Origin: Candidatus Omnitrophota bacterium
Lineage (GTDB): Bacteria; Omnitrophota; Gorgyraeia; Zapsychrales; Zapsychraceae
DNA: 64,000 nucleotides
Assembly (NCBI GenBank): GCA_029261055.1
Contig: JAJDCA010000038.1
Span: 9,619 to 73,618, forward strand
Direction: 5' to 3'
Within the stretch, counting starts at the first letter, position 1. Each line of letters opens with the position of its first letter. The notes beneath the pieces were generated by a model, which had not been told where the DNA came from, made no database searches, and saw nothing but the letters and a program-made list of their open reading frames with translations. Of the stretch, positions 1,074 through 30,890 are shown piece after piece. The position numbers and the translations under genes were made by a program.

Positions 1074-3116
1074 TTATTCTGAAACTCTCATGACAAATGG
1101 AAGATTGTTAATAGGCATCACTTCAAAAATAAAAGGAACAAGCCCACGCACCTCAATATTTTTCCAATTTTCCGTATTCTCCAAACTCAATGATGCTGCA
1201 TCTACACTCTCACCTTGATGCTCCCATTGAAGTTTCTGTGGATTTAAATCAATCCCGCCTTTTTTATGCTTTTCCAATTTATTATCTAAAGAATGACCAT
1301 ATTTTTCGTCGCTAATCATGGCATGATCGTTAACCTTGTATTTCTTTCTTAATGCCTGAATTATTTTTCTTTGTTCTATAAAAAAATTATCCACAACTTC
1401 CTCAGTAATAATTTTTCCTTTAAATTCATCCCGTTTACTTTTATCCTTATGCCCTAAAGTAATTATTTTACTTTTTAAATTTTCTTGTTTGTACAACTCA
1501 TCTTTAAATTTATCAATAAGTTTTTGAATGGCAAATACTCGTAATTGTGTTCCCACCTCAGAGTACTTTCTTTCTTTGCTTACACTTCTGTTCCAAGGGG
1601 CAATTTCCATGATACTCGTAGGTTCACTTCCATTTAAATCAGCCCATCCCTCGACCGCACCCTTATCTTCTGAAAAAACAAAATAAACATCAGACATTTC
1701 CTCTTTTTCTTGATATTCAACATGTGAAATAAATTTTACAACATCAGGCCAATGCCTTACCTGACTATCATTCTTATACTTCAACCACTCTACCAAACTT
1801 TCAATAGTTTTCTTTCTTTGATCATCGTTTAATTCTGCTCCATTAACAACATGAAGTTTAACCAAATACTTTTCATCTACATTGTTCCGCAATGCGACTA
1901 GTGTATTATTGTAATTTTGAACATTGTTCAGCTTACTCGCCAACATACTCAAATCACCAATAATTTTAAAATCTTCTTTTGCTTTTGTTTTCACCGGTAT
2001 ATTGTACTTGCCGCTAATTTTGATTCCTCCGGAAAAATATTTTCTTGGGATGATTTGGCCGGTGACTGTGTCGTAATCTTCTTTGATTAAATCATGCGTA
2101 CCTCGACGAAAAGAAATGAGGTATCGCTCGTAAATTTTATTCTTCACACCCTTATTTTCAATCGTAATACCTTCAATATTTTTTTGATCAGAATATTTCT
2201 GATTAATCAGGCTTGCCTTGAATTTCTTTTTGTACCAAGCAGCAAGAATCAAAGAGTTATAAATTTGGCGGAGTTTGGCAAAATTCTTTCCTTCATTCAC
2301 TTCCTGTTCAATGATGGGAATGATAATTTCTCTGATAATATCCGTTGTCATTTTATATTTCGTATTTCGCATATCGTATATTGCGCTTTTCTTTTCACTA
2401 CCTGTTCTTCCGTACTCACCTTCCGCTAAATAATCCTCTTGAAGCATGACCTTTAAATGTCCATCAATGACAAATACTCTATTACCATTTTCATACACTC
2501 GCGCCTTATCTGACACAATCCAAACCTTGTTAAAAGTATCCACTGGAATATCCGTTGTTCCGAAACGTTTGTATGCCTGTGCATACACCTTATCCCAAAA
2601 TTTTTCTCCTAACTCATATTCGGGATGCATCAAGGATGAGGTCAACTGCTTGAGCAAATAGTCCTGCGCGAGCAAGTCCCTCCCCATAGCGGTTTGGCCA
2701 AAAGCCTCTGGAATAATGCGGTCTTTTTCGTAGGGTGACAAATTTACCCACAAATCTTCTTCGGGAATAGACAAAGAAGCTAAAAAATATTTAATCAACC
2801 CTTGAGCTTCTCCACGTACTTGCTGTTCATTCAAGGTTGAATGCCCACTATCCAGAATAAAATCAAACCGAAACGGTTGATCCGGATTAATCACCAGCCC
2901 TCTTAACATCGGTGGGACAAAATTTTGACTTTGAATCACTCTCACCCCTAGCATAGGCAACCCCAGATCACCCCCCGAGGTTGATTTAGGTTGTTCCTGT
3001 GAAAAAACATACGCACCATTTACAACAAACCAAACTAAAACTAATAAAATAGATAATTTTAAAAAGGACCTGGGAGGTTTTCTGTAAAAATTTTTAATTT
3101 TATTCGTGTCCTGCAT
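1074..3116 (-). CDS. Secreted hypothetical protein. It is a paralogue of the N-terminal domain, and shares a short C-terminal motif, of the giant protein at 23122..30036.
   Basis: N-terminal signal/TM segment. About 330 aa are clearly alignable with the giant protein, for example GRDLLAQDYLLKQLTSSLMHPE vs GRDMLAQDYMLKQLTSSLMHPE and IIPRKYFSGGIKIS vs IIPRKYFSGGIEIS. The C-terminal GGIDLN...VRGLVPF motif is also shared. Confidence 0.7.
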   Translation of the reverse strand: MQDTNKIKNFYRKPPRSFLKLSILLVLVWFVVNGAYVFSQEQPKSTSGGDLGLPMLGVRVIQSQNFVPPMLRGLVINPDQPFRFDFILDSGHSTLNEQQVRGEAQGLIKYFLASLSIPEEDLWVNLSPYEKDRIIPEAFGQTAMGRDLLAQDYLLKQLTSSLMHPEYELGEKFWDKVYAQAYKRFGTTDIPVDTFNKVWIVSDKARVYENGNRVFVIDGHLKVMLQEDYLAEGEYGRTGSEKKSAIYDMRNTKYKMTTDIIREIIIPIIEQEVNEGKNFAKLRQIYNSLILAAWYKKKFKASLINQKYSDQKNIEGITIENKGVKNKIYERYLISFRRGTHDLIKEDYDTVTGQIIPRKYFSGGIKISGKYNIPVKTKAKEDFKIIGDLSMLASKLNNVQNYNNTLVALRNNVDEKYLVKLHVVNGAELNDDQRKKTIESLVEWLKYKNDSQVRHWPDVVKFISHVEYQEKEEMSDVYFVFSEDKGAVEGWADLNGSEPTSIMEIAPWNRSVSKERKYSEVGTQLRVFAIQKLIDKFKDELYKQENLKSKIITLGHKDKSKRDEFKGKIITEEVVDNFFIEQRKIIQALRKKYKVNDHAMISDEKYGHSLDNKLEKHKKGGIDLNPQKLQWEHQGESVDAASLSLENTENWKNIEVRGLVPFIFEVMPINNLPFVMRVSE

Positions 3117-3183
3117 AATTTTTTAATCCATAAAATAATTTTTTCTTACATAATTTAACATAAAATACATCCAATACTAATAA

Positions 3184-4248
3184 TTAATCATTCCCTCTAT
3201 TAAACCGCTCTAACGTGACGCCTTCGTTGAGTAACGATACGCCGCTTAGATAATCGGCAAAATGGGAGGCATAGAATGGGGTCATTAGAAATCCTTTTGA
3301 ACCTAATCCATTAAAAATAGCTAAATTTTTAATTTTCGGGTGTCGCCCTAGAATAGCTTTTTGATCTTTGATAACCGGTCGCACGCCAGCTTTATGATCT
3401 GTAACTTCAATAGTATTTGTAAAACACTGATTAAGACCAGCTACGATTTGATCACGCGCTGCCTCTGTCGGCTCACAATCTAATTGATCCCACTGATAAT
3501 TAGCTCCTGCTATCCACTGCGGCTGCTCCAAAGGGATGCACCACTTTCCTCTATTAATAATCATATGCGGTAATTTGGGCCCTTCTATTTTAATCTTTAA
3601 AATTTCGCCTTTAGCACTATTAAAAGGAATCCAATCAAACCAAGGATTCCATTGCGCCTTATACCCTTCACAAAAAATAACTGTACGAAACGATTCGCCA
3701 CCAAAGCAAACATTGTTATCCTTAATAGTTAAATCATCGTAAGAAAATTTTTGCAGCGCAAGAACATTCCGATTGTGAAAATACGCCTTCAACGTTGTTA
3801 AAAGTCGTTCTGTATGACAAAACCCTGATGACTTGATCACCACACTCCCTAACGGATCATTAATAGCCGCATGCACTGTCCTCGACGGATTAATAGGCTG
3901 ACTGTATTGCTGTCCTTCATTGAGCTTAACTCTTCTCTGCCACTGATCATGTTCACGTGCATCTTGAAATACGCGTAATATGGGCAAGGATTCAAAGAAA
4001 TGTTGATCAAATTGTGTTTCTAATTCTTGATATGTTTTTAAAGCATGCGCAAAAAAATGATCAAATCCATCCGCTATCGTAAATCGTTTTCCTATTACCG
4101 GATTAATGATACCGGCGCTGACCATCGAAGAGGAGTGTTTGTGTCCGTCGTCAACAATGCTTATTTGCTTATCCCGTTTTAACAGCTCCCAAGCAAGAAA
4201 GCTACCAACGACGCCTTGACCAATAATAAGAAAATCTTTCACAAGCAA
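3184..4248 (-). CDS. FAD-dependent oxidoreductase, MnmC C-terminal (cmnm5s2U demodification) domain-like
   Basis: N-terminal dinucleotide-binding motif IIGQGVVGSFLAWEL. It is glycine/D-amino-acid-oxidase-like. It overlaps the upstream MnmD-like gene by 10 nt, which mirrors the domain order of E. coli MnmC. Confidence 0.55.
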   Translation of the reverse strand: MLVKDFLIIGQGVVGSFLAWELLKRDKQISIVDDGHKHSSSMVSAGIINPVIGKRFTIADGFDHFFAHALKTYQELETQFDQHFFESLPILRVFQDAREHDQWQRRVKLNEGQQYSQPINPSRTVHAAINDPLGSVVIKSSGFCHTERLLTTLKAYFHNRNVLALQKFSYDDLTIKDNNVCFGGESFRTVIFCEGYKAQWNPWFDWIPFNSAKGEILKIKIEGPKLPHMIINRGKWCIPLEQPQWIAGANYQWDQLDCEPTEAARDQIVAGLNQCFTNTIEVTDHKAGVRPVIKDQKAILGRHPKIKNLAIFNGLGSKGFLMTPFYASHFADYLSGVSLLNEGVTLERFNRGND

Positions 4249-5030
4249 TACTTCCCTTTTAACATATGCCTTTTTCTGCCGAAACCCGGCGCACGCACCG
4301 TTTCAAATCTATTCTTTATTAATCCTCGACGGACAAAACCTGTTGATGTGTAGGTACTTACCGTCGTACCCGCTTTAGATAATGGTGCCATTTTAGCAAA
4401 AACATCATCTGACCACATCTCCGGATTCTTAGCCGGCGCAAACCCATCTAAATACCAGGCATCCACCCCATAATTCTCCTTACGCATATCATCCAAGGCC
4501 AACACAACATGTTTTGTAATTAGACTCAATTTTATTTTTCCCTGATCAAAAGAGATATGTTCATTTTGATTAATCAATTTGGAATATTGGCCAACTAATA
4601 AGTCGGCATACTTATTTAACTCCGGCCATAATCTAAGTATCTTATCCAAATCTTCTTTGTTTAATGGAAATTGATCAATAGAAACGTATTGCAACGTCCA
4701 ACTTTTGGGCGCCCATTCCTGCCAAAGTAACCACGTGCACAAAAAATTTAACCCCGAACCGAAACCAGTTTCGCCAATCGTAAACGTCCCTGCCTGCGAT
4801 TCCGATAAACCTTGCCACCTTCGTTTTAATTCATTCCCCCCACAAAAAACATATTGAGATTCCAGCATGCCATTTTCTGCACAAAAATAGGGATCATCAA
4901 ATTGCGTAGATCGTGGCGCCCCATTATCGTCCCATTCAATCGGGGCATAATTTAACTTATGATTAATTAATTTTGGCATGGTTAATAATAATATAGCAAC
5001 GAAGAAAGTCAATGCAACATAAATACCCAC
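4239..5030 (-). CDS. mnmD: tRNA 5-methylaminomethyl-2-thiouridine methyltransferase domain protein (MnmD/DUF752)
   Basis: Motifs IEWDDNG...FDDPYF, GETGFGSGLNF and WYLDGFAPAKNPEMW are diagnostic of the MnmC methyltransferase domain. Confidence 0.65.
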   Translation of the reverse strand: MGIYVALTFFVAILLLTMPKLINHKLNYAPIEWDDNGAPRSTQFDDPYFCAENGMLESQYVFCGGNELKRRWQGLSESQAGTFTIGETGFGSGLNFLCTWLLWQEWAPKSWTLQYVSIDQFPLNKEDLDKILRLWPELNKYADLLVGQYSKLINQNEHISFDQGKIKLSLITKHVVLALDDMRKENYGVDAWYLDGFAPAKNPEMWSDDVFAKMAPLSKAGTTVSTYTSTGFVRRGLIKNRFETVRAPGFGRKRHMLKGKYCL

Positions 5031-5072
5031 ACAAAATATTGTTATAAAACCCTCATCTGCTACAATAATCTA

Positions 5073-6362
5073 ATGATTAAATCATCAAAAATTCTTTATG
5101 GAATATGTATTATTCTATTTTTTCTTTTCATCCGTATTTCTGACTCCCTTGCTGATAATTTAACAGATGAAGCGGCTCAATTATTTGACCAATGGCGAAG
5201 CGCTGTTTTTCAAGTCCGTGTCATTGATTTATCCACTCAAGAAAAATCTTCAACTGGATCTGGATTTTTTATTGACCCCAAGGGTTATGCCGTGACTAAC
5301 TATCATGTGGTCTCGTCCTATGTAAATAAACCAAGTAATCATAAAATTGAAATCATTAATCATGCAGGGGACATACAGGATCTTTCCTTGGTCTATTTTG
5401 ATATTGTCCATGACCTTGCTATTTTAACCACAAAAAAAGCCTCCCCCTTAACCTTATTGCTGAATCAGTCTGATCTTTCTCATGGAGAGAAAATTTTTTC
5501 CATGGGAAACCCGCATGACTTAGGTATGACCATTATCGAAGGAACATTTAATGGTTTAATGAAACAATCCTTAGACCGTAGGATCCTTTTCTCCGGATCC
5601 CTTAATCCTGGAATGAGTGGCGGCCCTACCCTTAATCATGAAGGAAAAATTATCGGAATTAATGTCTCAACAATGAACAATGATGTTAGCTTTCTTGTTC
5701 CTGTGGAATATTTAAATGCTTTAGTAGCTAAAATCGAACAAGAACCTGTTTTGCCTAACACAAATTGGGATCAACTAATCGAAAATCAATTAATTGAAAA
5801 TCAAGATCACTTTATCAATACTTACCTTAAACAAGAATGGCAAACTTCTAAACTTGGGGATGCCATCATTCCAGGAGAAATTTCCCCTTATGTAAAATGC
5901 TGGGGAGGCTCTAAAAACAGAGATGAAGATCTAATGATTAAAGCCATGACCAATTGTAGTACAGAAGATTATATTTATGTTAACGATTATTTTTATACAT
6001 CTTACTTGGATTATCGTTTCTCTTGGCATGAAAGTAAAAACCTTCATTTCCTTAGACTTTATGCCCATCTTCAGGATGATTTCCCAAAAATTAATTATTT
6101 AAATAATGCATCAAAAACTGATGTTGAACGATTTAAATGCCAAACTGATTTTGTTACCATGGATAACCGCGTTTTTAAAACAGCTTTGTGTTCCCGAAGA
6201 TATAAACGTTTTAAAAAATTGTATGATGTCAGTTTAGATTTTATGTCTGTAGACGAATATGATCGTTCATTAATGGGGGGATTAATATTAGAAGGTGTCA
6301 CAAAAACTAAAAGCCAAGAATTTATTAAATATTTTATGGAAAAAATACAATGGAAAAATTAG
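5073..6362 (+). CDS. Secreted trypsin-like (S1) serine protease with a C-terminal domain of unknown function
   Basis: Signal peptide. Catalytic triad context NYHVV (His), DLAIL (Asp) and GMSGGP (Ser). There is no PDZ domain. The roughly 200-aa C-terminal extension is unrecognised. Confidence 0.65.
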   Translation: MIKSSKILYGICIILFFLFIRISDSLADNLTDEAAQLFDQWRSAVFQVRVIDLSTQEKSSTGSGFFIDPKGYAVTNYHVVSSYVNKPSNHKIEIINHAGDIQDLSLVYFDIVHDLAILTTKKASPLTLLLNQSDLSHGEKIFSMGNPHDLGMTIIEGTFNGLMKQSLDRRILFSGSLNPGMSGGPTLNHEGKIIGINVSTMNNDVSFLVPVEYLNALVAKIEQEPVLPNTNWDQLIENQLIENQDHFINTYLKQEWQTSKLGDAIIPGEISPYVKCWGGSKNRDEDLMIKAMTNCSTEDYIYVNDYFYTSYLDYRFSWHESKNLHFLRLYAHLQDDFPKINYLNNASKTDVERFKCQTDFVTMDNRVFKTALCSRRYKRFKKLYDVSLDFMSVDEYDRSLMGGLILEGVTKTKSQEFIKYFMEKIQWKN

Positions 6363-7285
6363 TCATTGAAGTTATTAAACCAGGAAAAATGCACAATGAA
6401 TTTTGTGTATTCACTGGATCAACCATTCGTATTGGTCGTGGATTTAATAATGATGTCATTCTTGATGATGCCTTTGTTTCTTCTGAACATTGTGAAATTA
6501 TACGTGATGATGAAGGCATAAAAATAAAAGACTTAAACAGTAAAAATGGCATTTACAACATTAAAGCTAAACAAATCCAGACGGACCTGGCCATCCATTC
6601 AGGTGATAAATTTATTGTGGGCCGTACTGAATTGAGAGTTTATCTCTCTTCCCACACAGTTAAACCAGCTCGCCCACTTATCCCCCGACATAAAATCATC
6701 ACTGCACTTAGAAAACCAATAACAGCGTGGATTTTGTTTTCTTTATTAAGCGCTCTGGCCTATTTGACGGGAGTCATCACAACGATAGAAAACGGTAAAC
6801 AAGGACAGATAATATTAACAGCCGTTGTTATTACCGGTATTATGATCTTCTGGGCGGGATTTTGGGCTATTATTGGATGGATTAGCCGCCATAGATTGCG
6901 TTTTGGCATTCAATTGTCCATTGCCTGCCTCTGGTACATCCTTTATATGCTATGCTCATTTATTATTGATTATGCTGCTTTTTATTTTAACCGTAACCTT
7001 TTGTATGTCATTTTGATGGGGCTGTGTTTTACAATGATCACAATTTTAGGATATTTAGGACATCTGCACTTTGCCACACGGATGAAAACAAAAACAAAAA
7101 TAATTTCGGCGACTGTGATTACATTAATTATGTTGGGCCTATCCGGCGTGATTATGAACTTTTATCATGAATCTCAATATCTTCAAAAAGAATACTCTAG
7201 CTCTGTTAATCCTCCCTACCTTGGAAATCCCCCTGCTCATTCCATCGAAGAATTTATTCAAAAAACAAATAAAATTTTTGAATAA
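6350..7285 (+). CDS. FHA-domain membrane protein
   Basis: N-terminal FHA signature (IRIGRGFNNDVILDD..VSSEHCEI...DLNSKNG) followed by about 6 predicted TM helices. It overlaps the protease gene by 13 nt. Confidence 0.6.
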   Translation: MEKLVIEVIKPGKMHNEFCVFTGSTIRIGRGFNNDVILDDAFVSSEHCEIIRDDEGIKIKDLNSKNGIYNIKAKQIQTDLAIHSGDKFIVGRTELRVYLSSHTVKPARPLIPRHKIITALRKPITAWILFSLLSALAYLTGVITTIENGKQGQIILTAVVITGIMIFWAGFWAIIGWISRHRLRFGIQLSIACLWYILYMLCSFIIDYAAFYFNRNLLYVILMGLCFTMITILGYLGHLHFATRMKTKTKIISATVITLIMLGLSGVIMNFYHESQYLQKEYSSSVNPPYLGNPPAHSIEEFIQKTNKIFE

Positions 7286-22522: not shown

Positions 22523-22765
22523 ATGCAAGCATCAATTGTGGACCTGCGCTATAAAATGAATGACATCCTTAAAGCCCTTAATCGTAATGAATCGATAACA
22601 ATCCTTTATCATGGCAAAAAAAAAGGCCTTATCGTGCCCACTACGAAAAAACCTGCTCAACATGTGACAGATCATCCTTTTTTTGGTATGCATAAAACGT
22701 CTGTCAAAGAAAGCGTGCCCCAAACCATAAAAAATCTTCGTAAAGGGCGTTATCATGATCTTTGA
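22523..22765 (+). CDS. vapB: VapB-like antitoxin
   Basis: 80-aa ORF overlapping the downstream PIN-domain gene by 11 nt. Confidence 0.5.
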   Translation: MQASIVDLRYKMNDILKALNRNESITILYHGKKKGLIVPTTKKPAQHVTDHPFFGMHKTSVKESVPQTIKNLRKGRYHDL

Positions 22766-23132
22766 TACAGATATCCTTATTTGGGTTCAACGCGGAAACC
22801 TGAAAGCTGCCAAACTTATTGAAAAATCTTCTAAACGTATTATTTCTATCTTCACCTACATGGAACTTCTACAACATGCCACTTCCAAAAAACAGCATCA
22901 ATACACTAAATCTTTTTTAACGGATTACAATTTTGAAGTTCTGCCTCTTACAGAAAATATTGGTCACCGCGCACTTATCTACCTCGAAGAATATGGATTA
23001 AGCACAGGACTGTCTGCAGCTGATGCCATTATTGCGGCGACGGCCGTTGAAAGTAACCTTGCTTTAGTAAGCGGCAATCAAAAACATTTTAAGGTAATTC
23101 GCGACCTGTCCTTACAAATCTTTAAACCTTAA
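22755..23132 (+). CDS. vapC: PIN-domain toxin VapC
   Basis: MIFDTDILIW, DAIIAATAV and NQKHF carry the PIN acidic residues. Confidence 0.75.
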   Translation: MIFDTDILIWVQRGNLKAAKLIEKSSKRIISIFTYMELLQHATSKKQHQYTKSFLTDYNFEVLPLTENIGHRALIYLEEYGLSTGLSAADAIIAATAVESNLALVSGNQKHFKVIRDLSLQIFKP

Positions 23133-26100
23133 ACGATTTCAGATTTTCATTTGGATCACGAGCGAGGATGTCATGTTGTGCATTAAGCCAAGCCTCTTCG
23201 TTTGGCAAATCTGATTCGCCTAACCCAAGCAACTGCACAACCGGCACAAACGTCACCCCGCGCAAAATCGGCACAAACCCTTTCACCCGCATACTCAAAT
23301 CCGCCGGCTGCATATCAAATGGCAACGGCACGCCGCGCCCATCCCGCCTAACCTGTAAATCCAACATCGCCGCATCCAAATTAATCCCACCGAGAGCATC
23401 TATCTGCGCGTCCCCTCCCTGAAAAACATCCACACCTTCAGATAACATGGCAATATCACCTTTTTTAAAACGAAAAAAGCCTTTCTTGAAATAAGAAGAG
23501 TCTTTATATTCTTCAATTTCCATCCCCTCGCTAGAATTAATAAACAATTTAACCCCGTCTACAATATTCCACAAAAAATCCTCCCCTAAATATTCCAGCT
23601 CCTCCCCTAAAACGACATAGTTGGGATAATTAAAAACCCCTTCATATTTTTCACGAACACCTTCGATAAACATAAAAAATTTCAATCCAAGAGCCTTTTG
23701 TCTATTCTCATCAGATCTTTTTTCGGCCTTACTTTTTAACTTCAAAGAAGAAAAGAAGTCCTTTAAAGAAGGTAAAATCCCTATCATTTTCCCTGGATAT
23801 CTATTTTGAAATTTTTTAATAGCCCCCAAAATATCTCCATCCTCTAAATTACGGACAATTCCCTTAAGCATGATTCTATCCCTATCTTTTTCGTCACCTG
23901 TATCCTGTTTTATATTCTCATCCTTAGCAAACCGTACAGCAAATTGTTTTTTCCTCGAAATAATAATCGTCCTTTCTTTACGCCCGTTATATTCTTCAAA
24001 TTTAAGCTTATATTCGTTCCGATTCTTCTGATCTTGAATGATACGAACCTTTATATTTTTTTTGCTCTTGATATCATAAAATACTGTTCCATAGTACAGC
24101 CCTGTTATCCAGTCATCCTTGTGAGTTAAATTTCTAAGAAGAAAATTCTCAGCCTCATTAGTATGCTTCCCATTCATGTCTTTATTACTAACACTCTGAT
24201 ACGCATCAACAATAAATTTTCTATCTTCATTTCCCACCTGTTCATCTGTCACTTCCCCCATCATCGCAAAATCCGCCTCGCCTACTATGACGTCCAGCAT
24301 ACGGATGATGCGGTCGTAGATACTTTCCTCATAAAAATTTAAATCAGAATCTTGATCAGAATCGTAGAAATCATACTTTTTAATAATCGTCGTTAATTCT
24401 CCACCTCTAATATCCTCAATCAATTTCGACATTTGACCAACCTTACGCTGACCATTCGTCCTCATATCACTTACAAAACCTTGCCAGGATTGCCTTTCCT
24501 TTTTCCAGTATTCCTCGTCTTTTTCCAGATCACTATTCCATCCTGACCCTGATGACACCTGATATAAAGGAAAGAACCTCTCAAAATACTCGCTATCCCA
24601 CTGAGCCAGCTGATTGCCGTAATTAGCTAAATTTCTTTCCATTTCATCAACAACCATCTTTTGACCTTTAAATGTCATCTCAATAATAGTCGTCAATTCC
24701 AAGAAAATACGCCTTTCCGACAAATGTGCCGTCTTAAGTGATTCAATTAACCGTGACTTTTTCTTCTTATCAAGTACATTTATAATAATGTTCCTTAAAA
24801 AGTCTTTACCCGAATTATCTAAGCCATAGTGGTAAATATTTTTTTGTTGCAAATGATCTTCTGAAATACTTTTACCAAAAGTACCATCATCCTGAATCCT
24901 ACGGATAAAATTCGCCGTATCCTGAAACAAATCAGGATCGCTTGTTTTTATTTTCTTTAAATACGCATTAACTCTATTTTCCAACTTCTTTTTCAAGTGC
25001 GTAACGGCATTAAATATACTTGCGGTCTTCTCCTGATCACGCCCGTGATCCACATACCCAAAACTTAAATAATACCCAACACCTTCATCAAACAACACAT
25101 CCTTCCCCATCAAACGCTGCACTTCATGAACAATTTCTTCAGGAGTTGTTATTCCTGATAAAATAAAATTAGAATCGATTATCTTCCCAACAGCTTCATC
25201 GATTTCCATAAACATCGCCACATCACCCTCATTTTCTTCACTCTTCCCTAAAACCCCCTGTACTTTTTGCGTTAATTCATCGATGCTAGTAATACTAACA
25301 ACATCTTTAACATTATTATGCAGCTCCATAATCGCCTCTTTTAGATAAGGATGCGCTAAAACAAAAACTGGAATATTGCGACCTATATCATCTGCATTTA
25401 ACCACTCTAAAAAAACATCTGAAGTATAATATGCAGGCACATTTTCATCAAACACACCCTCATCAAACACTTCTCCTGCGATCACTAAATCTATTTTTGT
25501 ATCCTCATCTTTAATCACGTCACGCGCCTGTTGTTGCGTTGTGATAAAAATAAGTTCATATCCTTTATCGGACAAAGCATTTTTAATCATTTCTTGATTT
25601 TTTTCCGATTTCTCCATCACAGCAATCACCGGAAGCCCCGTCTTTTTTTTCTCCTTAACAGTTTTCATATTGCCTGTAGTCTGTGAGTTCCCATTGTTCA
25701 AAGAATTTTTAATCTTGCCAAACTTCACTTCAAAAGGCCATTCTGAATTGATAATAATCTTTGTTATTTCACGAGGCTTCTGCCCTTCACTTTTTTTTAT
25801 TTCTTCAAACGTAATATGATACGTTATATCATTCTTTGAACGAATGACTTTAATATCCGCGTCTTTATGAGTTTTGGTATCCATAAATTTATCGACATCA
25901 TCCCTCTCAATTTTAACCTCACTTAAATTATTAACTAAAAACACATCCGCCTCATTGTGATTTCTTGAATTAATCCTGGCATCAACTACATTCAATATTT
26001 TCTGAATACCCGCCTTTTCCTCCAAAGATAACTCAGCATCACGTGCTTCCCCCATCATCGCATAATCCTGAAGAACCTTAAGAACGATCTTGGCCTCTGG

Positions 26101-29100
26101 CATGTCTAAATTTTTAAGAATGCGCCTTTTTGTATTTTCATCGATAATCATAAACTCATCATGACTTTGACCCGTAATCGCTTCATTAAACTTATTGCGA
26201 ATAAGCACTTCATTTTCTACACGATTACGTCCTAAATCAGCAATATTACCAAGCAAATGTATCCTTTGTTCTTGCTGTTCAAGAACATGCTCGATCATTT
26301 TTCGTGCTCGCTGTTGATATTTCTGAATAATTTTTTCCGGTAATTTAAGGTCATAACTATCTGATCCATCTGGTTGACTAAACAACCATGTTATTTTCTT
26401 ATTTTTCATATCTTTTAAAAAATAAATGGTCTTATTTAATGGAGGCACAATCAAACTACTTAACCACTTGCCTTTATATGGAATAAGACTACTATTTTTA
26501 TCAATATCCACATTAACATATTCTTTCGGCATAGAAATTTCTAAAATTCCGTAATACAAAATAGTTTCATGAATTTCCGACAAAGATACTTTTGAAGTAA
26601 CCATATTATGAATTTTCATAAAACTCAAATTAATCTCCTGTTGCTTGCTTTGATCAAACAGATCAGTTAATTTTTCATAAACTGTATTTGAATCTATATG
26701 CTCATTGATAATACCTAACGCTTGTCGATACACATCACTCATGAGACTTTCTAAAACATCGGGAAAAAATAATTGATTCACTGCATCCATCTCCTGTTCC
26801 ATTTTTTCCATAAATTCAATTAATTCCGGCGTAGACTCTTCATCATATCGTAGTTCCTCAATATCTTCTATTTTTCTGGAAATACTCGCCCCTCTTGTAT
26901 ACCCCGCAATTTTCCATTTTCTAAATACTTCCATCCCAGCTAATTTATTCGAAAGTTTTTCATTTTTCTGTTCTATTCTTTTAAGCTCTTCCGAAACATC
27001 ATCCAAAGTTAAATTTCTCTGCATGTCATTAATCATCGCATCATCCACAATCTGTTCTATAATTTCACTACCCTCAACAATAAGATAATATTTATCAGAA
27101 TTATCTGGTTTGTAGAACTTCTTTCGTGGTGATTCATTATTAACGAGCGTCTTAATTTCGCTCCTCTGTCCCTCAAGCTCTAACGGTAAAAAATGAATAA
27201 ATCCTCCTTTAAGAATAATGACATCATTTTCTTCCTCAGTTAAAAAATCCAAGTCTTCGTAAGCTATCTCCGTCACCCTTGCATCAAGGTTAGGTTCAAT
27301 TTCTTCTTTTATGTCCTGTAATATGTTTGTTCGTGTTAATCGTGAAGGAGGATTTCTCTTTTCTTTGCTTGATAATCCTCGCCTCTCTAGCAGCCTTTGA
27401 TAAGCCAGTGCATTACTACTGAAAAGACCTTTGTTCTTCTCTAGCGCATTTTCAATAATTTTAATCCATTCCTCCACTTCATTATGATCTTTAGCCCAAG
27501 ATTTACCTGGGGGTATTTTTTTTATTGCCTTAAACGCTGCCAAAATCCCCATCTCCGTTAACTCTTCCGAGATCATCTGAACACTTTCCGCTTGAAAATC
27601 CTGATTCTTCTTATCCAAACGATTACGAACATCGCTATCTAAATCAATAATTACAAAAGGGGCTTGGAACTCATCGTACGTATCCCAGACATAACCCACG
27701 CGATTCACATAAGGCTTTAGCCACTCAAACAACTTCTCCTTGTCCCACACCCCCCACTCAACCGATCCACCCTGATCAACGATTAGCACACGCCTATTAT
27801 TAACCAATATTTTATCTAATTCTCCCTTTTCTATAGGCAATATGCCGCGTACGTTGACGGATGCCTCCACTCCTTCACGCTCAATTTCTTCTTTGACATA
27901 AAGAGGGTTTGAAGGAAACAATTCCACAATTGTGTTTAAATCAACATAATTAGCTCCTGTAAACCACGAAAAATTATCTGCCACTCTAATATTATTAAAC
28001 AAATCCTCACGGGATAAGGGCAATGAAGGATCTAAAGAAAATTCAAAAACTTCTTCATTTAATAAATTAACCTTATTTAAACGCACTTCACGCTTAACAT
28101 ACTCATAACTCAAATCATCATCACCGCCTAATCCAAGCTCGTTCACTGACCCACTATCACCCAAAGGTAACTCTCTGATTTCACCCTGCCGTTTTTGTAC
28201 AAAAGAAGATACAGCTTTATTTCCAAAAACCCCGTCAAAAAACTCATCTACACGATGCCATAGAATGTCATCTTCCCTTAACCTTTCACTAAGACTCGTC
28301 TTGGCCAACATCCCTAAAATTCTTATCCCTGCAATTAAATTTGGAACCTTATCGCTATGATGCAAAAGATAATTAATCAACACGGGATTAAGAACCTCAT
28401 GCCCAAGATCATATTTTGCCACCATACGCGCCAATGCCCCTAACGCCGAAAGCAACCTTCTCTCATCTTCCGGCTGTGCTTCGGGCAAAGTAGACACATA
28501 ATATGCACGCAAAAATATATCCCCCAAAAACTCTTTGATCTCTATCGTTAAATCATGATTTTCAATACTTTCCCAAAACCCGGGCACATTCAAAAAGCCT
28601 TCCAGCACTTTCCTGCGTAAAGGATGTGCAGATTGCTCATATTTTTGCCATGACATTCTTCCTACCTTATTAGCCTCAAATTCTATTGAGTCAGTATTTC
28701 CTCGGTTTATTTTTTCTTTCAAATGAGTGTTAATATCCCTAAAAATAGCCTCCACATTCAACATCGCAGAATCCTGTTCCCTCCCTGCTAAATTAAAAAT
28801 ATCCAGGTGTCGTGACGTAGCCGCCTCTTCCCCCAAACTCGCCAAATCAACTGTGGCGCTCATGGCGCTTTCAGAAATAAATATGGTTGCGACGTCGTTG
28901 ATCTGTATATCGGTTGGGTCGAGTGTGGTGAGCATGGCAAGACTGATTTCTATCCCGCCGGAGAAGTATTTGCGGGGGATGATTTGGTCGGTCGCGGCGT
29001 CGTAGTCCTCTTTGATGTAATCGTAAACACCTTTGCGGAATGAATCGAGATATTGGTCGTAGATTTTTTGTGTCATTTGTTTATCTTCGGTGTCGATGCC

Positions 29101-30036
29101 TTTGATTTTGTTTTGATCGACATAGACTTGTCCTAACAGCGATTGTTTGAGGTTTTGTTTGTACCACGCGGCGAGGATCATGGCATGATAAATCTGACGG
29201 AGATTGGCAAAAGTTTTGCCTTCGTTGACTTCGTGTTCGATGGCGGGTAACAAAATATCGCGAATGATAGACGTTGTAATATTTGAATGCGTAGGGGTAT
29301 GATTTATCATGCCCTTGTCTTGGGTTTGATGAATCAAACCCCTACGATCCGCATGTTCCATCGCTAAATAATCTTCCTCCAACATCACCTTCAAATGACT
29401 CTCCAACACATAGGTCGTGGCGGTGGCTTCGTGTTCATAGACGACAGCCTTCTCCGGTACGATCCATACTTTGTGAAAGGTATCCATTGGGATATCTGTC
29501 GTACCGAATTCAGCCTGTGCGCGTTCGTAAACACGCGTCCAAAATTCTTCCCCTAAATCTTCTTCCGGATGCATCAACGATGAGGTCAGCTGTTTCAACA
29601 TATAATCTTGCGCAAGCATGTCGCGCCCCATATCTGTTTCGCCTAACCCTCCGGCGATAATGCGATCCGGTTCATTCGGGCTTAAATTCACCCACATTTC
29701 TTTCTCCGGAACCGTCAAAGCAGCCAAAAAATATTTGACGAGTTTGGTGATTTCCGTATTCAAGGCTTCACCTTGCGGCATCGCCGTATCTCCGGAATCA
29801 ATAATAAAATTGAATTTAAGCGGATTATCGGGATGGATGGTAATACCACGCACCATTGTAGGCATAAATGCATCAGTCGGCCCCACAAAACTTCCGGGTA
29901 TCGGCAGGTTTACTACAGATTGTGCTGGCATCTGCGCATAACCTGGAGGAACTAAAGTGATCATTATAAAGACAATCACCATAAAAAAAGATAGAATTCG
30001 ATAAAAAACCTTCATTTTTTTGTGTTCTTTAAACAT
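23122..30036 (-). CDS. Giant secreted multidomain protein (2304 aa) of unknown function
   Basis: Uninterrupted 6.9-kb ORF with an N-terminal signal peptide. Residues 40-380 are paralogous to ORF 1074..3116. There is an internal duplication (..DYAMMGEARDAE.. / ..DFAMMGEVTDEQ.. units). There is a degenerate receiver-like region (VIAVMEKSEK...IDLVIAGE...). The C-terminal GGINLD...VKGFVPI motif is shared with the paralogue. Confidence 0.8.
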   Translation of the reverse strand: MFKEHKKMKVFYRILSFFMVIVFIMITLVPPGYAQMPAQSVVNLPIPGSFVGPTDAFMPTMVRGITIHPDNPLKFNFIIDSGDTAMPQGEALNTEITKLVKYFLAALTVPEKEMWVNLSPNEPDRIIAGGLGETDMGRDMLAQDYMLKQLTSSLMHPEEDLGEEFWTRVYERAQAEFGTTDIPMDTFHKVWIVPEKAVVYEHEATATTYVLESHLKVMLEEDYLAMEHADRRGLIHQTQDKGMINHTPTHSNITTSIIRDILLPAIEHEVNEGKTFANLRQIYHAMILAAWYKQNLKQSLLGQVYVDQNKIKGIDTEDKQMTQKIYDQYLDSFRKGVYDYIKEDYDAATDQIIPRKYFSGGIEISLAMLTTLDPTDIQINDVATIFISESAMSATVDLASLGEEAATSRHLDIFNLAGREQDSAMLNVEAIFRDINTHLKEKINRGNTDSIEFEANKVGRMSWQKYEQSAHPLRRKVLEGFLNVPGFWESIENHDLTIEIKEFLGDIFLRAYYVSTLPEAQPEDERRLLSALGALARMVAKYDLGHEVLNPVLINYLLHHSDKVPNLIAGIRILGMLAKTSLSERLREDDILWHRVDEFFDGVFGNKAVSSFVQKRQGEIRELPLGDSGSVNELGLGGDDDLSYEYVKREVRLNKVNLLNEEVFEFSLDPSLPLSREDLFNNIRVADNFSWFTGANYVDLNTIVELFPSNPLYVKEEIEREGVEASVNVRGILPIEKGELDKILVNNRRVLIVDQGGSVEWGVWDKEKLFEWLKPYVNRVGYVWDTYDEFQAPFVIIDLDSDVRNRLDKKNQDFQAESVQMISEELTEMGILAAFKAIKKIPPGKSWAKDHNEVEEWIKIIENALEKNKGLFSSNALAYQRLLERRGLSSKEKRNPPSRLTRTNILQDIKEEIEPNLDARVTEIAYEDLDFLTEEENDVIILKGGFIHFLPLELEGQRSEIKTLVNNESPRKKFYKPDNSDKYYLIVEGSEIIEQIVDDAMINDMQRNLTLDDVSEELKRIEQKNEKLSNKLAGMEVFRKWKIAGYTRGASISRKIEDIEELRYDEESTPELIEFMEKMEQEMDAVNQLFFPDVLESLMSDVYRQALGIINEHIDSNTVYEKLTDLFDQSKQQEINLSFMKIHNMVTSKVSLSEIHETILYYGILEISMPKEYVNVDIDKNSSLIPYKGKWLSSLIVPPLNKTIYFLKDMKNKKITWLFSQPDGSDSYDLKLPEKIIQKYQQRARKMIEHVLEQQEQRIHLLGNIADLGRNRVENEVLIRNKFNEAITGQSHDEFMIIDENTKRRILKNLDMPEAKIVLKVLQDYAMMGEARDAELSLEEKAGIQKILNVVDARINSRNHNEADVFLVNNLSEVKIERDDVDKFMDTKTHKDADIKVIRSKNDITYHITFEEIKKSEGQKPREITKIIINSEWPFEVKFGKIKNSLNNGNSQTTGNMKTVKEKKKTGLPVIAVMEKSEKNQEMIKNALSDKGYELIFITTQQQARDVIKDEDTKIDLVIAGEVFDEGVFDENVPAYYTSDVFLEWLNADDIGRNIPVFVLAHPYLKEAIMELHNNVKDVVSITSIDELTQKVQGVLGKSEENEGDVAMFMEIDEAVGKIIDSNFILSGITTPEEIVHEVQRLMGKDVLFDEGVGYYLSFGYVDHGRDQEKTASIFNAVTHLKKKLENRVNAYLKKIKTSDPDLFQDTANFIRRIQDDGTFGKSISEDHLQQKNIYHYGLDNSGKDFLRNIIINVLDKKKKSRLIESLKTAHLSERRIFLELTTIIEMTFKGQKMVVDEMERNLANYGNQLAQWDSEYFERFFPLYQVSSGSGWNSDLEKDEEYWKKERQSWQGFVSDMRTNGQRKVGQMSKLIEDIRGGELTTIIKKYDFYDSDQDSDLNFYEESIYDRIIRMLDVIVGEADFAMMGEVTDEQVGNEDRKFIVDAYQSVSNKDMNGKHTNEAENFLLRNLTHKDDWITGLYYGTVFYDIKSKKNIKVRIIQDQKNRNEYKLKFEEYNGRKERTIIISRKKQFAVRFAKDENIKQDTGDEKDRDRIMLKGIVRNLEDGDILGAIKKFQNRYPGKMIGILPSLKDFFSSLKLKSKAEKRSDENRQKALGLKFFMFIEGVREKYEGVFNYPNYVVLGEELEYLGEDFLWNIVDGVKLFINSSEGMEIEEYKDSSYFKKGFFRFKKGDIAMLSEGVDVFQGGDAQIDALGGINLDAAMLDLQVRRDGRGVPLPFDMQPADLSMRVKGFVPILRGVTFVPVVQLLGLGESDLPNEEAWLNAQHDILARDPNENLKSFKV

Positions 30037-30437: not shown

Positions 30438-30890
30438 CTATATCAACGTATTTGAATTATCCATCAAGGCTTTAATTTCTTTAATTTGCCCCATTTTAAA
30501 CTGTATTAACATATCAAACAAATCTTTTGACTGTGTATACACCAGAACATCCCTCAAATGCTTATAGTATTTTTCAATTTCTTCCTCATACATTAAAACC
30601 TTATACATAATTTCTTCTCCAGAAGCCTCATTCGAGATTTCACATTGGCAATAGTTTTCTTTAATTGTATACTCAGGCAAATTCTTTATAAATTCAGAAT
30701 CTTTGTACTCATCCATATTAATACTATCAAATACTTTCAAATGCTTAATCTGCCTCTCCTTTAATGTCACTACAATCCCTTTTGATCGTACATCGTGCAT
30801 TGTTTGTTCCATATTCTCATAACAAACCAATAATCGTTTTTCCCAACCAATAATCGTACGTAATATTTGATCTAATCTTTGAATAGCCAT
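30438..30890 (-). CDS. Hypothetical protein
   Basis: 150-aa ORF with no recognisable motifs. Confidence 0.4.
   Translation of the reverse strand: MAIQRLDQILRTIIGWEKRLLVCYENMEQTMHDVRSKGIVVTLKERQIKHLKVFDSINMDEYKDSEFIKNLPEYTIKENYCQCEISNEASGEEIMYKVLMYEEEIEKYYKHLRDVLVYTQSKDLFDMLIQFKMGQIKEIKALMDNSNTLI

Follow-up and report, generated by a model that had tools for sequence, protein, structure and literature searches.

An open reading frame (ORF) of 2304 codons lies at positions 23122 to 30036, on the minus strand, of a 64,000-nucleotide stretch of contig JAJDCA010000038.1 from a Candidatus Omnitrophota bacterium (hereafter, the window). The encoded protein, referred to here as the giant, raises the question of what kind of system it belongs to. 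A first-pass annotation, made from the letters of the window, described it as a secreted protein of modular architecture. Judged by sequence similarity, the giant is not a one-off but belongs to an Omnitrophota family that is very large and apparently undescribed: the family counts thousands of members, and the giant is mid-sized for the phylum. On the evidence given below, it is fairly probable that this phylum-wide family consists of modular carriers exported by Sec, whose cargo is free of disulfides and which are probably processed at short junction motifs.

The family frame

The constant parts of the giant and its paralogue in the window are as follows.

23122..30036, minus strand: whole ORF of the giant, 2304 codons and a stop, a single frame without cysteine
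29935..30036, minus strand: predicted Sec-type signal peptide, residues 1-34, with a basic n-region, the core ILSFFMVIVFIMITLV and the end PPGYA↓Q (the arrow marks the predicted cleavage site)
28927..29934, minus strand: family N-domain, residues 35-370, ending PRKYFSGG, delimited by similarity to relatives and to the paralogue
28765..28926, minus strand: linker after the N-domain, residues 371-424, with three x-x-A-M motifs (SLAM, ESAM, DSAM)
23125..23448, minus strand: family C-domain, residues 2197-2304, GGINLDAAMLDLQVRRDGRGVPLP…VKGFVPILRGVTFVPVVQLLGLG and an acidic tail
1074..3116, minus strand: small paralogue, 680 residues, with signal, N-domain, one D-H-A-M at residue 597, and C-domain

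A search of 5.8 billion proteins gave at least 2858 matches for the giant and at least 3166 for the small paralogue. The matches of both searches were in the N-domain only, at 47-70% identity (E-values down to 9e-183 for the giant), and their hosts, where a source was named, were Omnitrophota (Omnitrophica). A scan of species-representative genomes located 59 family loci, all in metagenome-assembled genomes (MAGs) of the Omnitrophota type, some of which are labelled "uncultured Planctomycetales" and one Candidatus Elulimicrobium. The MAG with the latter label encodes a member with an N-domain identity of 47% (locus L050; DYOU01000028.1), and the NCBI taxonomy places Elulimicrobium in the Patescibacteria group, not in Omnitrophota. 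Either the label or the binning of this MAG is wrong, or the family extends outside Omnitrophota. The family statistics in this text were derived from the best-scoring 240 of several thousand homologues and from the 59 loci, and their proportions may be biased accordingly.

The members range from 390 to more than 4,000 residues and have a common frame: a Sec-type signal, an N-domain of about 300 residues, a variable cargo, and a C-domain (GGIDLNP…PVIINI.P..NLP.LLG). The cargo of the relatives includes phosphoglycerate kinase, enolase, glucose-6-phosphate isomerase, phosphoglucomutase, UDP-glucose pyrophosphorylase, phosphoenolpyruvate synthase/pyruvate phosphate dikinase (PPDK), isocitrate lyase together with malate synthase, glyceraldehyde-3-phosphate dehydrogenase (GAPDH), glutamate dehydrogenase, radical-SAM enzymes and methyltransferases, as well as kinases, receivers, and HEAT, TPR and WD40 repeats. 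Family genes often occur two or three within 20 kb, in a row on the same strand (L001, L009, L039 and others). The two members in the window take up about 9 of its 64 kb. In the literature that was searched, no paper mentions the GGIDLN motif and none links Omnitrophota with polyproteins.

The signal of the giant reads …TLVPPGYA↓QMP, which fits the family pattern (G/S)YA↓Q. Signal-peptide calls were heuristic here. Among 234 homologues, the net charge on the N-terminal side of the core is positive in 98% (median +3), and that on the C-terminal side has a median of 0. The core itself is hydrophobic, about 16 residues long and closed by a proline, after which the (G/S)-Y-A↓Q site follows. The only hydrophobic stretches of the giant are this signal (Kyte-Doolittle value 2.42) and a segment of the C-terminal tail (1.77). 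The Sec-type signal proposed in the first-pass annotation is thus supported by conservation of charge, core and cleavage site throughout these homologues, and these features of the signal make secretion of the giant, as proposed there, probable.

The N-domain is marked by the hallmarks WVNLSP…FNKVWIVP…PRKYFSGG. It had been described as common to the giant and to the ORF at 1074..3116, which agrees with 51% identity over 369 residues (E=4e-107). In an alignment of 46 sequences, 47 invariant columns lie in the N-domain and six in the C-domain. The AlphaFold model of the N-domain (predicted local distance difference test, pLDDT, about 90) is an α/β structure with long helices and a long β-hairpin. 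The earlier statement that the domain fits no known family was confirmed by searches of Pfam, NCBIfam and the Protein Data Bank (PDB; sequences searched by profile), none of which gave a match. Similarly, a Foldseek search of the model against the PDB gave a best E-value of 0.096, and the viral structure library BFVD contained no match. It should be mentioned that the top Foldseek rows were ClyA-type toxins, but at a TM-score of about 0.1 they are meaningless.

The conserved part of the C-domain is about 60-90 residues long, with the consensus GGIDLNPALLDLQIKRDG.G.PLP…EGF.PVIINI.P..NLP.LLG followed by an acidic tail. In the giant, GGINLD is at residue 2216, 89 residues before the C-terminus. 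A single GGI[DN]x at 64-125 residues from the C-terminus was found in 115 of 120 homologues; the motif is at that distance in 116, one of which has a second copy. The tail of the giant matched 162 relatives by BLASTP, and by inspection head and tail occur together in nearly all of the 61 complete ORFs from the fetched loci. The GGINLD…VKGFVPI motif is, as had been noticed at the outset, common to the giant and the small paralogue.

With signal, N-domain, one junction and C-domain, the small paralogue is by its sequence a minimal family member. It was found identical in an independent Logan assembly (run SRR15505515). In the AlphaFold model of its 680 residues, the last 60 are mostly non-helical with pLDDT values of 63-92, and those of the N-domain are about 90. 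Because of these values for the tail, the model gives a hint that the C-terminal tail may dock on the N-domain. The tails of several close relatives (P0002, P0003 and P0005) contain two cysteines nine residues apart (GCPSDxES…C) in the variable acidic part. Non-catalytic cysteines such as these are very rare in the family, and the pair may form a disulfide loop.

Cysteine exclusion and junction motifs

The giant has no cysteine in 2304 residues. The probability of this by chance is about 2e-12 at the local background of 1.17%, the content of 415 non-family ORFs of the same loci. The absence is a property of the family: cysteine amounts to 0.086% of the whole proteins and 0.05% downstream of the N-domain in the 240 homologues, a 14- to 23-fold depletion. 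Among the neighbouring proteins, the content is 1.3% in putative cytoplasmic ones and 0.84% in those bearing a signal by a crude prediction. Long non-family proteins in the same loci are normal in this respect, with 16-19 cysteines in glutamate synthase and 11 in carbamoyl-phosphate synthase.

The surviving cargo cysteines that were checked are mostly catalytic: SCTTN of GAPDH, CxxxCxxC of radical-SAM enzymes and KKCGH of isocitrate lyase. The GVCGE- and CDYCV-type contexts are read as active sites of PPDK and isochorismatase, respectively. Since the surviving cysteines that were checked are mostly catalytic and the signatures of enolase and phosphoglycerate kinase are intact, the cargo enzymes appear to have been selected both to work and to shed every dispensable cysteine. 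Cysteine-poor passengers are typical of routes in which a membrane is crossed unfolded after the periplasm, as for substrates of autotransporters, two-partner secretion and type I secretion. Avoidance of cysteine also occurs in exported proteins of bacteria that shun disulfides. No other evidence here argues as strongly for an extracytoplasmic family as the cysteine purge together with the conserved signal.

The second property of the cargo is a short motif, D-x-A-M, which occurs eight times in the giant where 0.25 is expected and at most three were seen in 5000 shuffled sequences. Six of these sites bound the cargo modules.

28762..28773, minus strand: junction D-S-A-M, residues 422-425
27034..27045, minus strand: junction D-D-A-M, residues 998-1001
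26056..26067, minus strand: junction D-Y-A-M, residues 1324-1327
25213..25224, minus strand: junction D-V-A-M, residues 1605-1608
24262..24273, minus strand: junction D-F-A-M, residues 1922-1925
23446..23457, minus strand: junction D-I-A-M, residues 2194-2197, 22 residues before GGINLD

The middle regions of 119 homologues contain 210 such motifs (22.4±4.8 expected), whereas each of the permuted or conservative variants M.AD, E.AM, N.AM and D.GM is found about 20 times. Extended, the consensus reads D-[AQS]-A-M-[LTM]-[ASV]-[EK], with D-x-A-M-[LTM]-[ASV]-[EK] in the genome of the giant, and the flanks are not conserved. The motif is not enriched in the non-family ORFs of the window (2 versus 1.3 expected). 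An alternative junction, [AS]-S-S-P-[VI], was also found: SSPV occurs 140 times (2.5 expected), including 115 times (1.3 expected) in proteins free of D-x-A-M. Of the 240 homologues, 111 use D-x-A-M only, 64 SSP only, 21 both and 44 neither. Usage is consistent within genomes (12:0, 14:0 and 0:13), so that the two motifs seem to be genome-specific dialects.

The junction sites of relatives fall between Pfam domains. The clearest geometry is seen in relative P0084, in which …GKVLPGISVLT-DAAM-LSSLGG-TKLAKFEASETMDSRDNPT joins the exact end of phosphoglycerate kinase to the start of enolase, with both signature motifs intact. The motifs concentrate right after the N-domain and 0-30 residues before the C-domain, often as doublets.

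Synonymous codons vary at the Asp, Ala, Ser, Pro and Val of the motifs, and in other genomes the Met is not preceded by anything like a Shine-Dalgarno sequence; the constraint at the junctions therefore acts on the protein and not on DNA or translation initiation. A signal at the DNA level, such as a recombination or modification site, was rejected because of the same synonymous variation. Internal translation starts at the Met of D-x-A-M were also considered, as some sites of the giant are preceded by Shine-Dalgarno-like sequences (GGTGAT, GAGG). They were rejected: the codons before 100 such sites in other genomes are diverse, and Ala-Met pairs outside the motif show the same Ala-codon bias. 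This bias concerns the Ala codons before Met, which are nearly always GCG or GCC (12 of 12 in the giant; 96 of 130 non-motif pairs in relatives). The pattern resembles a codon-pair bias of a general kind, independent of the junction motif.

Because the motif is short, exact, lineage-specific and located at the ends of modules, it is suggestive of a trans-acting factor with a co-evolved recognition site. A processing protease is the simplest candidate for the reader of the junction motifs and most likely the correct one.

Cargo and locus of the giant

The six junctions divide the cargo of the giant into five modules of 576, 326, 281, 317 and 272 residues, which supports the earlier description of the protein as modular. 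The parts of the cargo are as follows.

27037..28764, minus strand: cargo module 2, residues 425-1000, orphan
26059..27036, minus strand: cargo module 3, residues 1001-1326, orphan
25663..26058, minus strand: duplicated unit A, residues 1327-1458, first half of module 4
25237..25644, minus strand: receiver-like (possibly flavodoxin-like) segment, residues 1465-1600, without an acidic pocket, on weak evidence
24265..25215, minus strand: cargo module 5, residues 1608-1924, orphan
23887..24264, minus strand: duplicated unit B, residues 1925-2050, first half of module 6
23479..23868, minus strand: module 6b, residues 2057-2186, 32% identical to residues 847-967 of P0005

Scanned one by one, the modules gave no significant match in Pfam. 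A word-indexed search of the 5.8 billion proteins with residues 425-2196, and a full HMMER scan of 1.84 billion representatives with residues 1001-2196, found only the giant itself. The sole cargo stretch that matches another family member is module 6b. The middle of the giant had been reported to lack recognisable motifs, which is true for Pfam and NCBIfam and also for homology. In composition, the cargo of the 240 homologues is poorer in His (1.4% versus 2.1%) and richer in Asp and Glu (14.7% versus 11.1%) than neighbouring proteins.

Two duplicated units of about 140 residues had been recognised in the giant, and they were found again here as residues ~1304-1458 and ~1908-2050 with a Smith-Waterman score of 130, compared with 37.8±6.6 for shuffled sequences (z=14). 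No further similarity within the protein was found beyond this pair. Two of the five modules open with the duplicated domain of about 130 residues, and each unit begins at a D-x-A-M site. This means that DYAMMGE and DFAMMGE, which had been taken as hallmarks of the units, are two of the junctions.

The segment between the units had been regarded as a pseudo-receiver. A weak likeness to receivers is retained, but the identity is not established, since every score is below the significance threshold. The best Pfam match was KaiA_N (E=0.008; 16.8 bits against a gathering score of 27), and the PF00072 profile gave no match in the giant at E≤10. Alignment by hhalign with the receivers of family members gave a probability of 22% (P=1e-3) with β1-α1-β2-α2-β3 in register; in this register, ME replaces DD and Gly replaces the phospho-acceptor Asp. 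A single-sequence AlphaFold model has a β-α repeat pattern compatible with a receiver, but its pLDDT of 33 makes it unreliable. The N-terminal pseudo-receiver of KaiA (PF21714) resembles the segment in that β1-β3 of the receiver are in register and the acidic pocket is missing; it differs in that the segment of the giant scores below the family thresholds and is poorly modelled. A degenerate receiver fold of residues 1465-1600 is therefore possible.

The giant ORF is a genuine gene. As reported before, it is one uninterrupted frame on the minus strand and by far the longest in the window. An identical protein is present in NCBI, where it is annotated from Met8. A Shine-Dalgarno box, AGGAG, is located 11 nucleotides upstream of the first ATG, and the gene upstream ends in a stem-loop and a T-run near 30290-30262 (read by eye). 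Because of these two features, the ORF looks like a transcription unit of its own. GC content is 35.5% in the orphan cargo part (24001..28000) and 42.9% in the part with the N-domain (28001..30000), and most of the window is at about 36-40%. The cargo part also has the more negative GC skew. The giant is neither an RTX protein nor a repeat adhesin, two possibilities raised in the first-pass annotation: Pfam and NCBIfam gave no adhesin, RTX or autotransporter profile, and the protein has no GGxGxD motifs and no tandem repeats.

The genes adjoining the giant are as follows.

30438..30890, minus strand: ORF of 150 residues directly upstream of the giant gene, without a Pfam match
22523..23132, plus strand: VapBC-like pair (an ORF of 80 residues and a PIN-domain ORF of 125 residues), convergent with the giant gene

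The PIN toxin gene overlaps the 3' end of the giant gene by 11 bp. The toxin and the other neighbours named earlier (a histidine kinase with a cyclic-nucleotide-binding domain, a receiver protein and a DASS transporter) were identified again, but they are not a conserved context: no neighbouring family was seen at more than 7 of the 60 loci, so that a conserved partner gene was rejected. The small paralogue is flanked (1074..7285) by genes for a DAO-type oxidoreductase, an MnmC-like methyltransferase, a trypsin-like peptidase and an FHA-domain protein. The arrangement is the same in SRR15505515 (L060), where the Logan contig also contains SlyX.

A proposed carrier with processed cargo

A mechanism can be proposed from these features. 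Sec would export the polypeptide, and the signal would be cut off after GYA. The cargo would be kept free of disulfides, either because it has to pass, unfolded, through another narrow step at the outer membrane or a target cell, or because its workplace is oxidising. The N- and C-domains, possibly docked together, would form a constant handling unit that serves as an anchor or a secretion handle. The junction motifs would be recognised by a trans-acting factor, most likely a processing protease by which modules are set free or parted from one another. On this view, the giant would be a carrier whose load consists of five modules of no recognisable family.

Several observations weigh against this proposal. 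The main difficulty is that many cargo enzymes of the relatives depend on ATP, NAD or sugar phosphates, none of which would be expected beyond the cytoplasm. In the 60 loci, the family genes have no conserved neighbour that encodes a protease, an outer-membrane transporter or another partner. Neither junction motif is present in 44 of the 240 homologues, and a search for a third motif in this class found none. Furthermore, no column of the N- or C-domain varies in step with the motif dialect (mutual information at most 0.36 bit). A role of either domain as a dialect-specific reader is thus not supported, and the absence of such columns fits a trans-acting factor.

The need for ATP and NAD keeps alive a reading in which the protein is a membrane-tethered scaffold, with an uncleaved N-terminal anchor, cargo facing the cytoplasm, and junctions that are flexible linkers or docking sites. 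Cargo enzymes of the cytoplasmic type (dependent on ATP, NAD or Fe-S) with intact catalytic motifs would suit such a scaffold, and a 2026 preprint favours this reading for its class of proteins with transmembrane helices only (10.64898/2026.06.07.730766). However, the charge distribution around the signal core places the N-terminus inside and the bulk of the protein outside; the core is short and is followed by Pro and the conserved small-x-small site GYA↓Q; and the cysteine depletion has no rationale in the cytoplasm, where the neighbouring proteins have normal contents. We regard the scaffold as unlikely. The same cofactor requirement makes delivery into prey attractive. As a polymorphic effector for prey or host cells, the protein would use its N-domain for trafficking or translocation, and the modules would be released in the target by processing at the junctions. 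A conserved head with hypervariable cargo, many paralogues per genome, often in tandem, and cargo enzymes that remain catalytically competent, as predicted from their motifs, are in line with this idea. So is the fast turnover of the cargo, as the middle of the giant has no homologue outside the family and only residues 2057-2186 match a member. Exclusion of cysteine is typical of substrates threaded unfolded. In addition, an episymbiotic or predatory way of life is assumed for Omnitrophota (PMC10066038). Against it, there are no toxin domains and no immunity-like genes adjoining, a conserved C-terminal domain is unusual among polymorphic toxins, and no delivery apparatus is linked to the family genes. 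The effector has a similarly low probability in our estimate, and it is a special case of the carrier rather than an alternative to it.

The size of the protein, its signal peptide, the lack of domain matches and the lower GC content of the cargo part could also suggest an RTX- or adhesin-type surface protein, or an artefact of annotation or assembly, that is, a chimeric or decaying ORF. Here the absence of RTX and adhesin features applies, and the family head at the start is matched by a family tail in frame at the end, as in nearly all relatives. The D-x-A-M dialect extends over the full length, as does the absence of cysteine, and both agree with the paralogue located about 20 kb away, which argues against a chimera or a dead gene. 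A reading as an RTX protein, adhesin or artefact is very improbable. The carrier exported by Sec and processed at its junctions is thus the preferred reading, and its place among known systems can be considered.

The closest comparison is with the Archaeovorins and other multi-enzyme long proteins, also called multi-enzyme metabolic clusters (10.1101/2023.11.21.568195; 10.64898/2026.06.07.730766), which are also from Omnitrophota, bear signals or transmembrane helices, and are very long and modular. The relatives of the giant share with these proteins PGI, TIM, FBPase, PGM, PPDK, GT5, HEAT, receiver and radical-SAM domains. Cleavage into several products has been speculated for the Omnitrophota giants, whose N-terminal regions were described as lacking identifiable domains and whose cleavage points were given as unknown (West-Roberts et al. 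2023; 10.1101/2023.11.21.568195). In the same work, an Archaeovorin is defined by a gene of >90 kb (protein of >30,000 residues). The giant differs in size, with 6.9 kb and 2304 residues against the >10,000-30,000 residues of these proteins; in having an N-terminal signal only, instead of numerous transmembrane helices; and in domain set, as its modules gave no significant Pfam match to glycosyltransferase (GT), methyltransferase, glycoside hydrolase (GH), peptidase, SAM or NUDIX domains. Cysteine is nowhere mentioned in the texts of both works, according to term searches (10.1101/2023.11.21.568195; 10.64898/2026.06.07.730766), nor was a conserved head/tail frame or a junction motif seen in them.

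The TpsA exoproteins of two-partner secretion (TPS), such as FHA and CdiA, and the passengers of autotransporters resemble the giant in that a signal and a conserved domain near the N-terminus precede a variable passenger of great length. These passengers are poor in cysteine, and in CdiA a VENN peptide demarcates the variable part. Unlike TpsA, the giant has no match to the TPS domain (PF05860), and its N-domain is predicted to be α/β with long helices, not a β-helix; the family has a conserved C-domain and many junctions per protein, and no Omp85-type gene is nearby. It is also unlike a classical autotransporter, since no β-barrel translocator profile matched and the C-domain has only about 60-90 residues. 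The difference from polymorphic toxins is that the giant ends in the family tail, and the convergent PIN toxin downstream belongs to a pair of its own. Viral and "polyvalent" polyproteins (picornavirus 3C sites; PMC5512222) are similar in combining several complete enzymes with a short lineage-specific motif at the domain ends. They differ in that the present family is chromosomal, with housekeeping-type cargo and a Sec signal, that no protease domain was identified in cis, and that cleavage is hypothetical here. Judged from these features, the frame functionally resembles the exoproteins of two-partner secretion and polyproteins, but the defining TPS and β-barrel domains are absent.

Exclusion of cysteine from exported proteins of Gram-positive bacteria was reportedly described by Daniels et al. 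in 2010. In both cases exported proteins are selectively depleted in cysteine, but the depletion here concerns one family only and goes far beyond that of other putative exported proteins (0.05-0.09% versus 0.84%).

Omnitrophota are uncultured ultra-small episymbionts or predators, and their enormous modular proteins are a recognised puzzle. The present family touches on two published questions, namely whether the glycolytic-type domains are outside the cell and where the polypeptides are cut. As to the former, a cysteine purge that spares the checked catalytic cysteines is independent evidence, at the level of sequence, for an extracytoplasmic, disulfide-intolerant route with active enzymes. 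As to the latter, D-x-A-M and SSPV are explicit candidate processing points. Existing metaproteomes can be screened for them, and giant proteins can be divided at these points before their structures are predicted. Structural and secretion biology gain a target in the N-domain, which is large and highly conserved and has no solved relative. A bolder proposal, which we hold only tentatively and rate below the carrier itself, is that the family represents a distinct, undescribed export-and-processing pathway of the whole phylum, in which a constant head and a constant tail serve as the handle. A sizeable fraction of enzymes that are otherwise cytoplasmic and still catalytically competent would leave the cytoplasm in this way as cysteine-free polyproteins, cut or recognised at dialect-specific junctions. 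If this is true, modules of central metabolism or signalling would operate in the envelope, in a surface coat or inside prey cells, and the same grammar may segment the giant proteins of 10,000-150,000 residues in this phylum.

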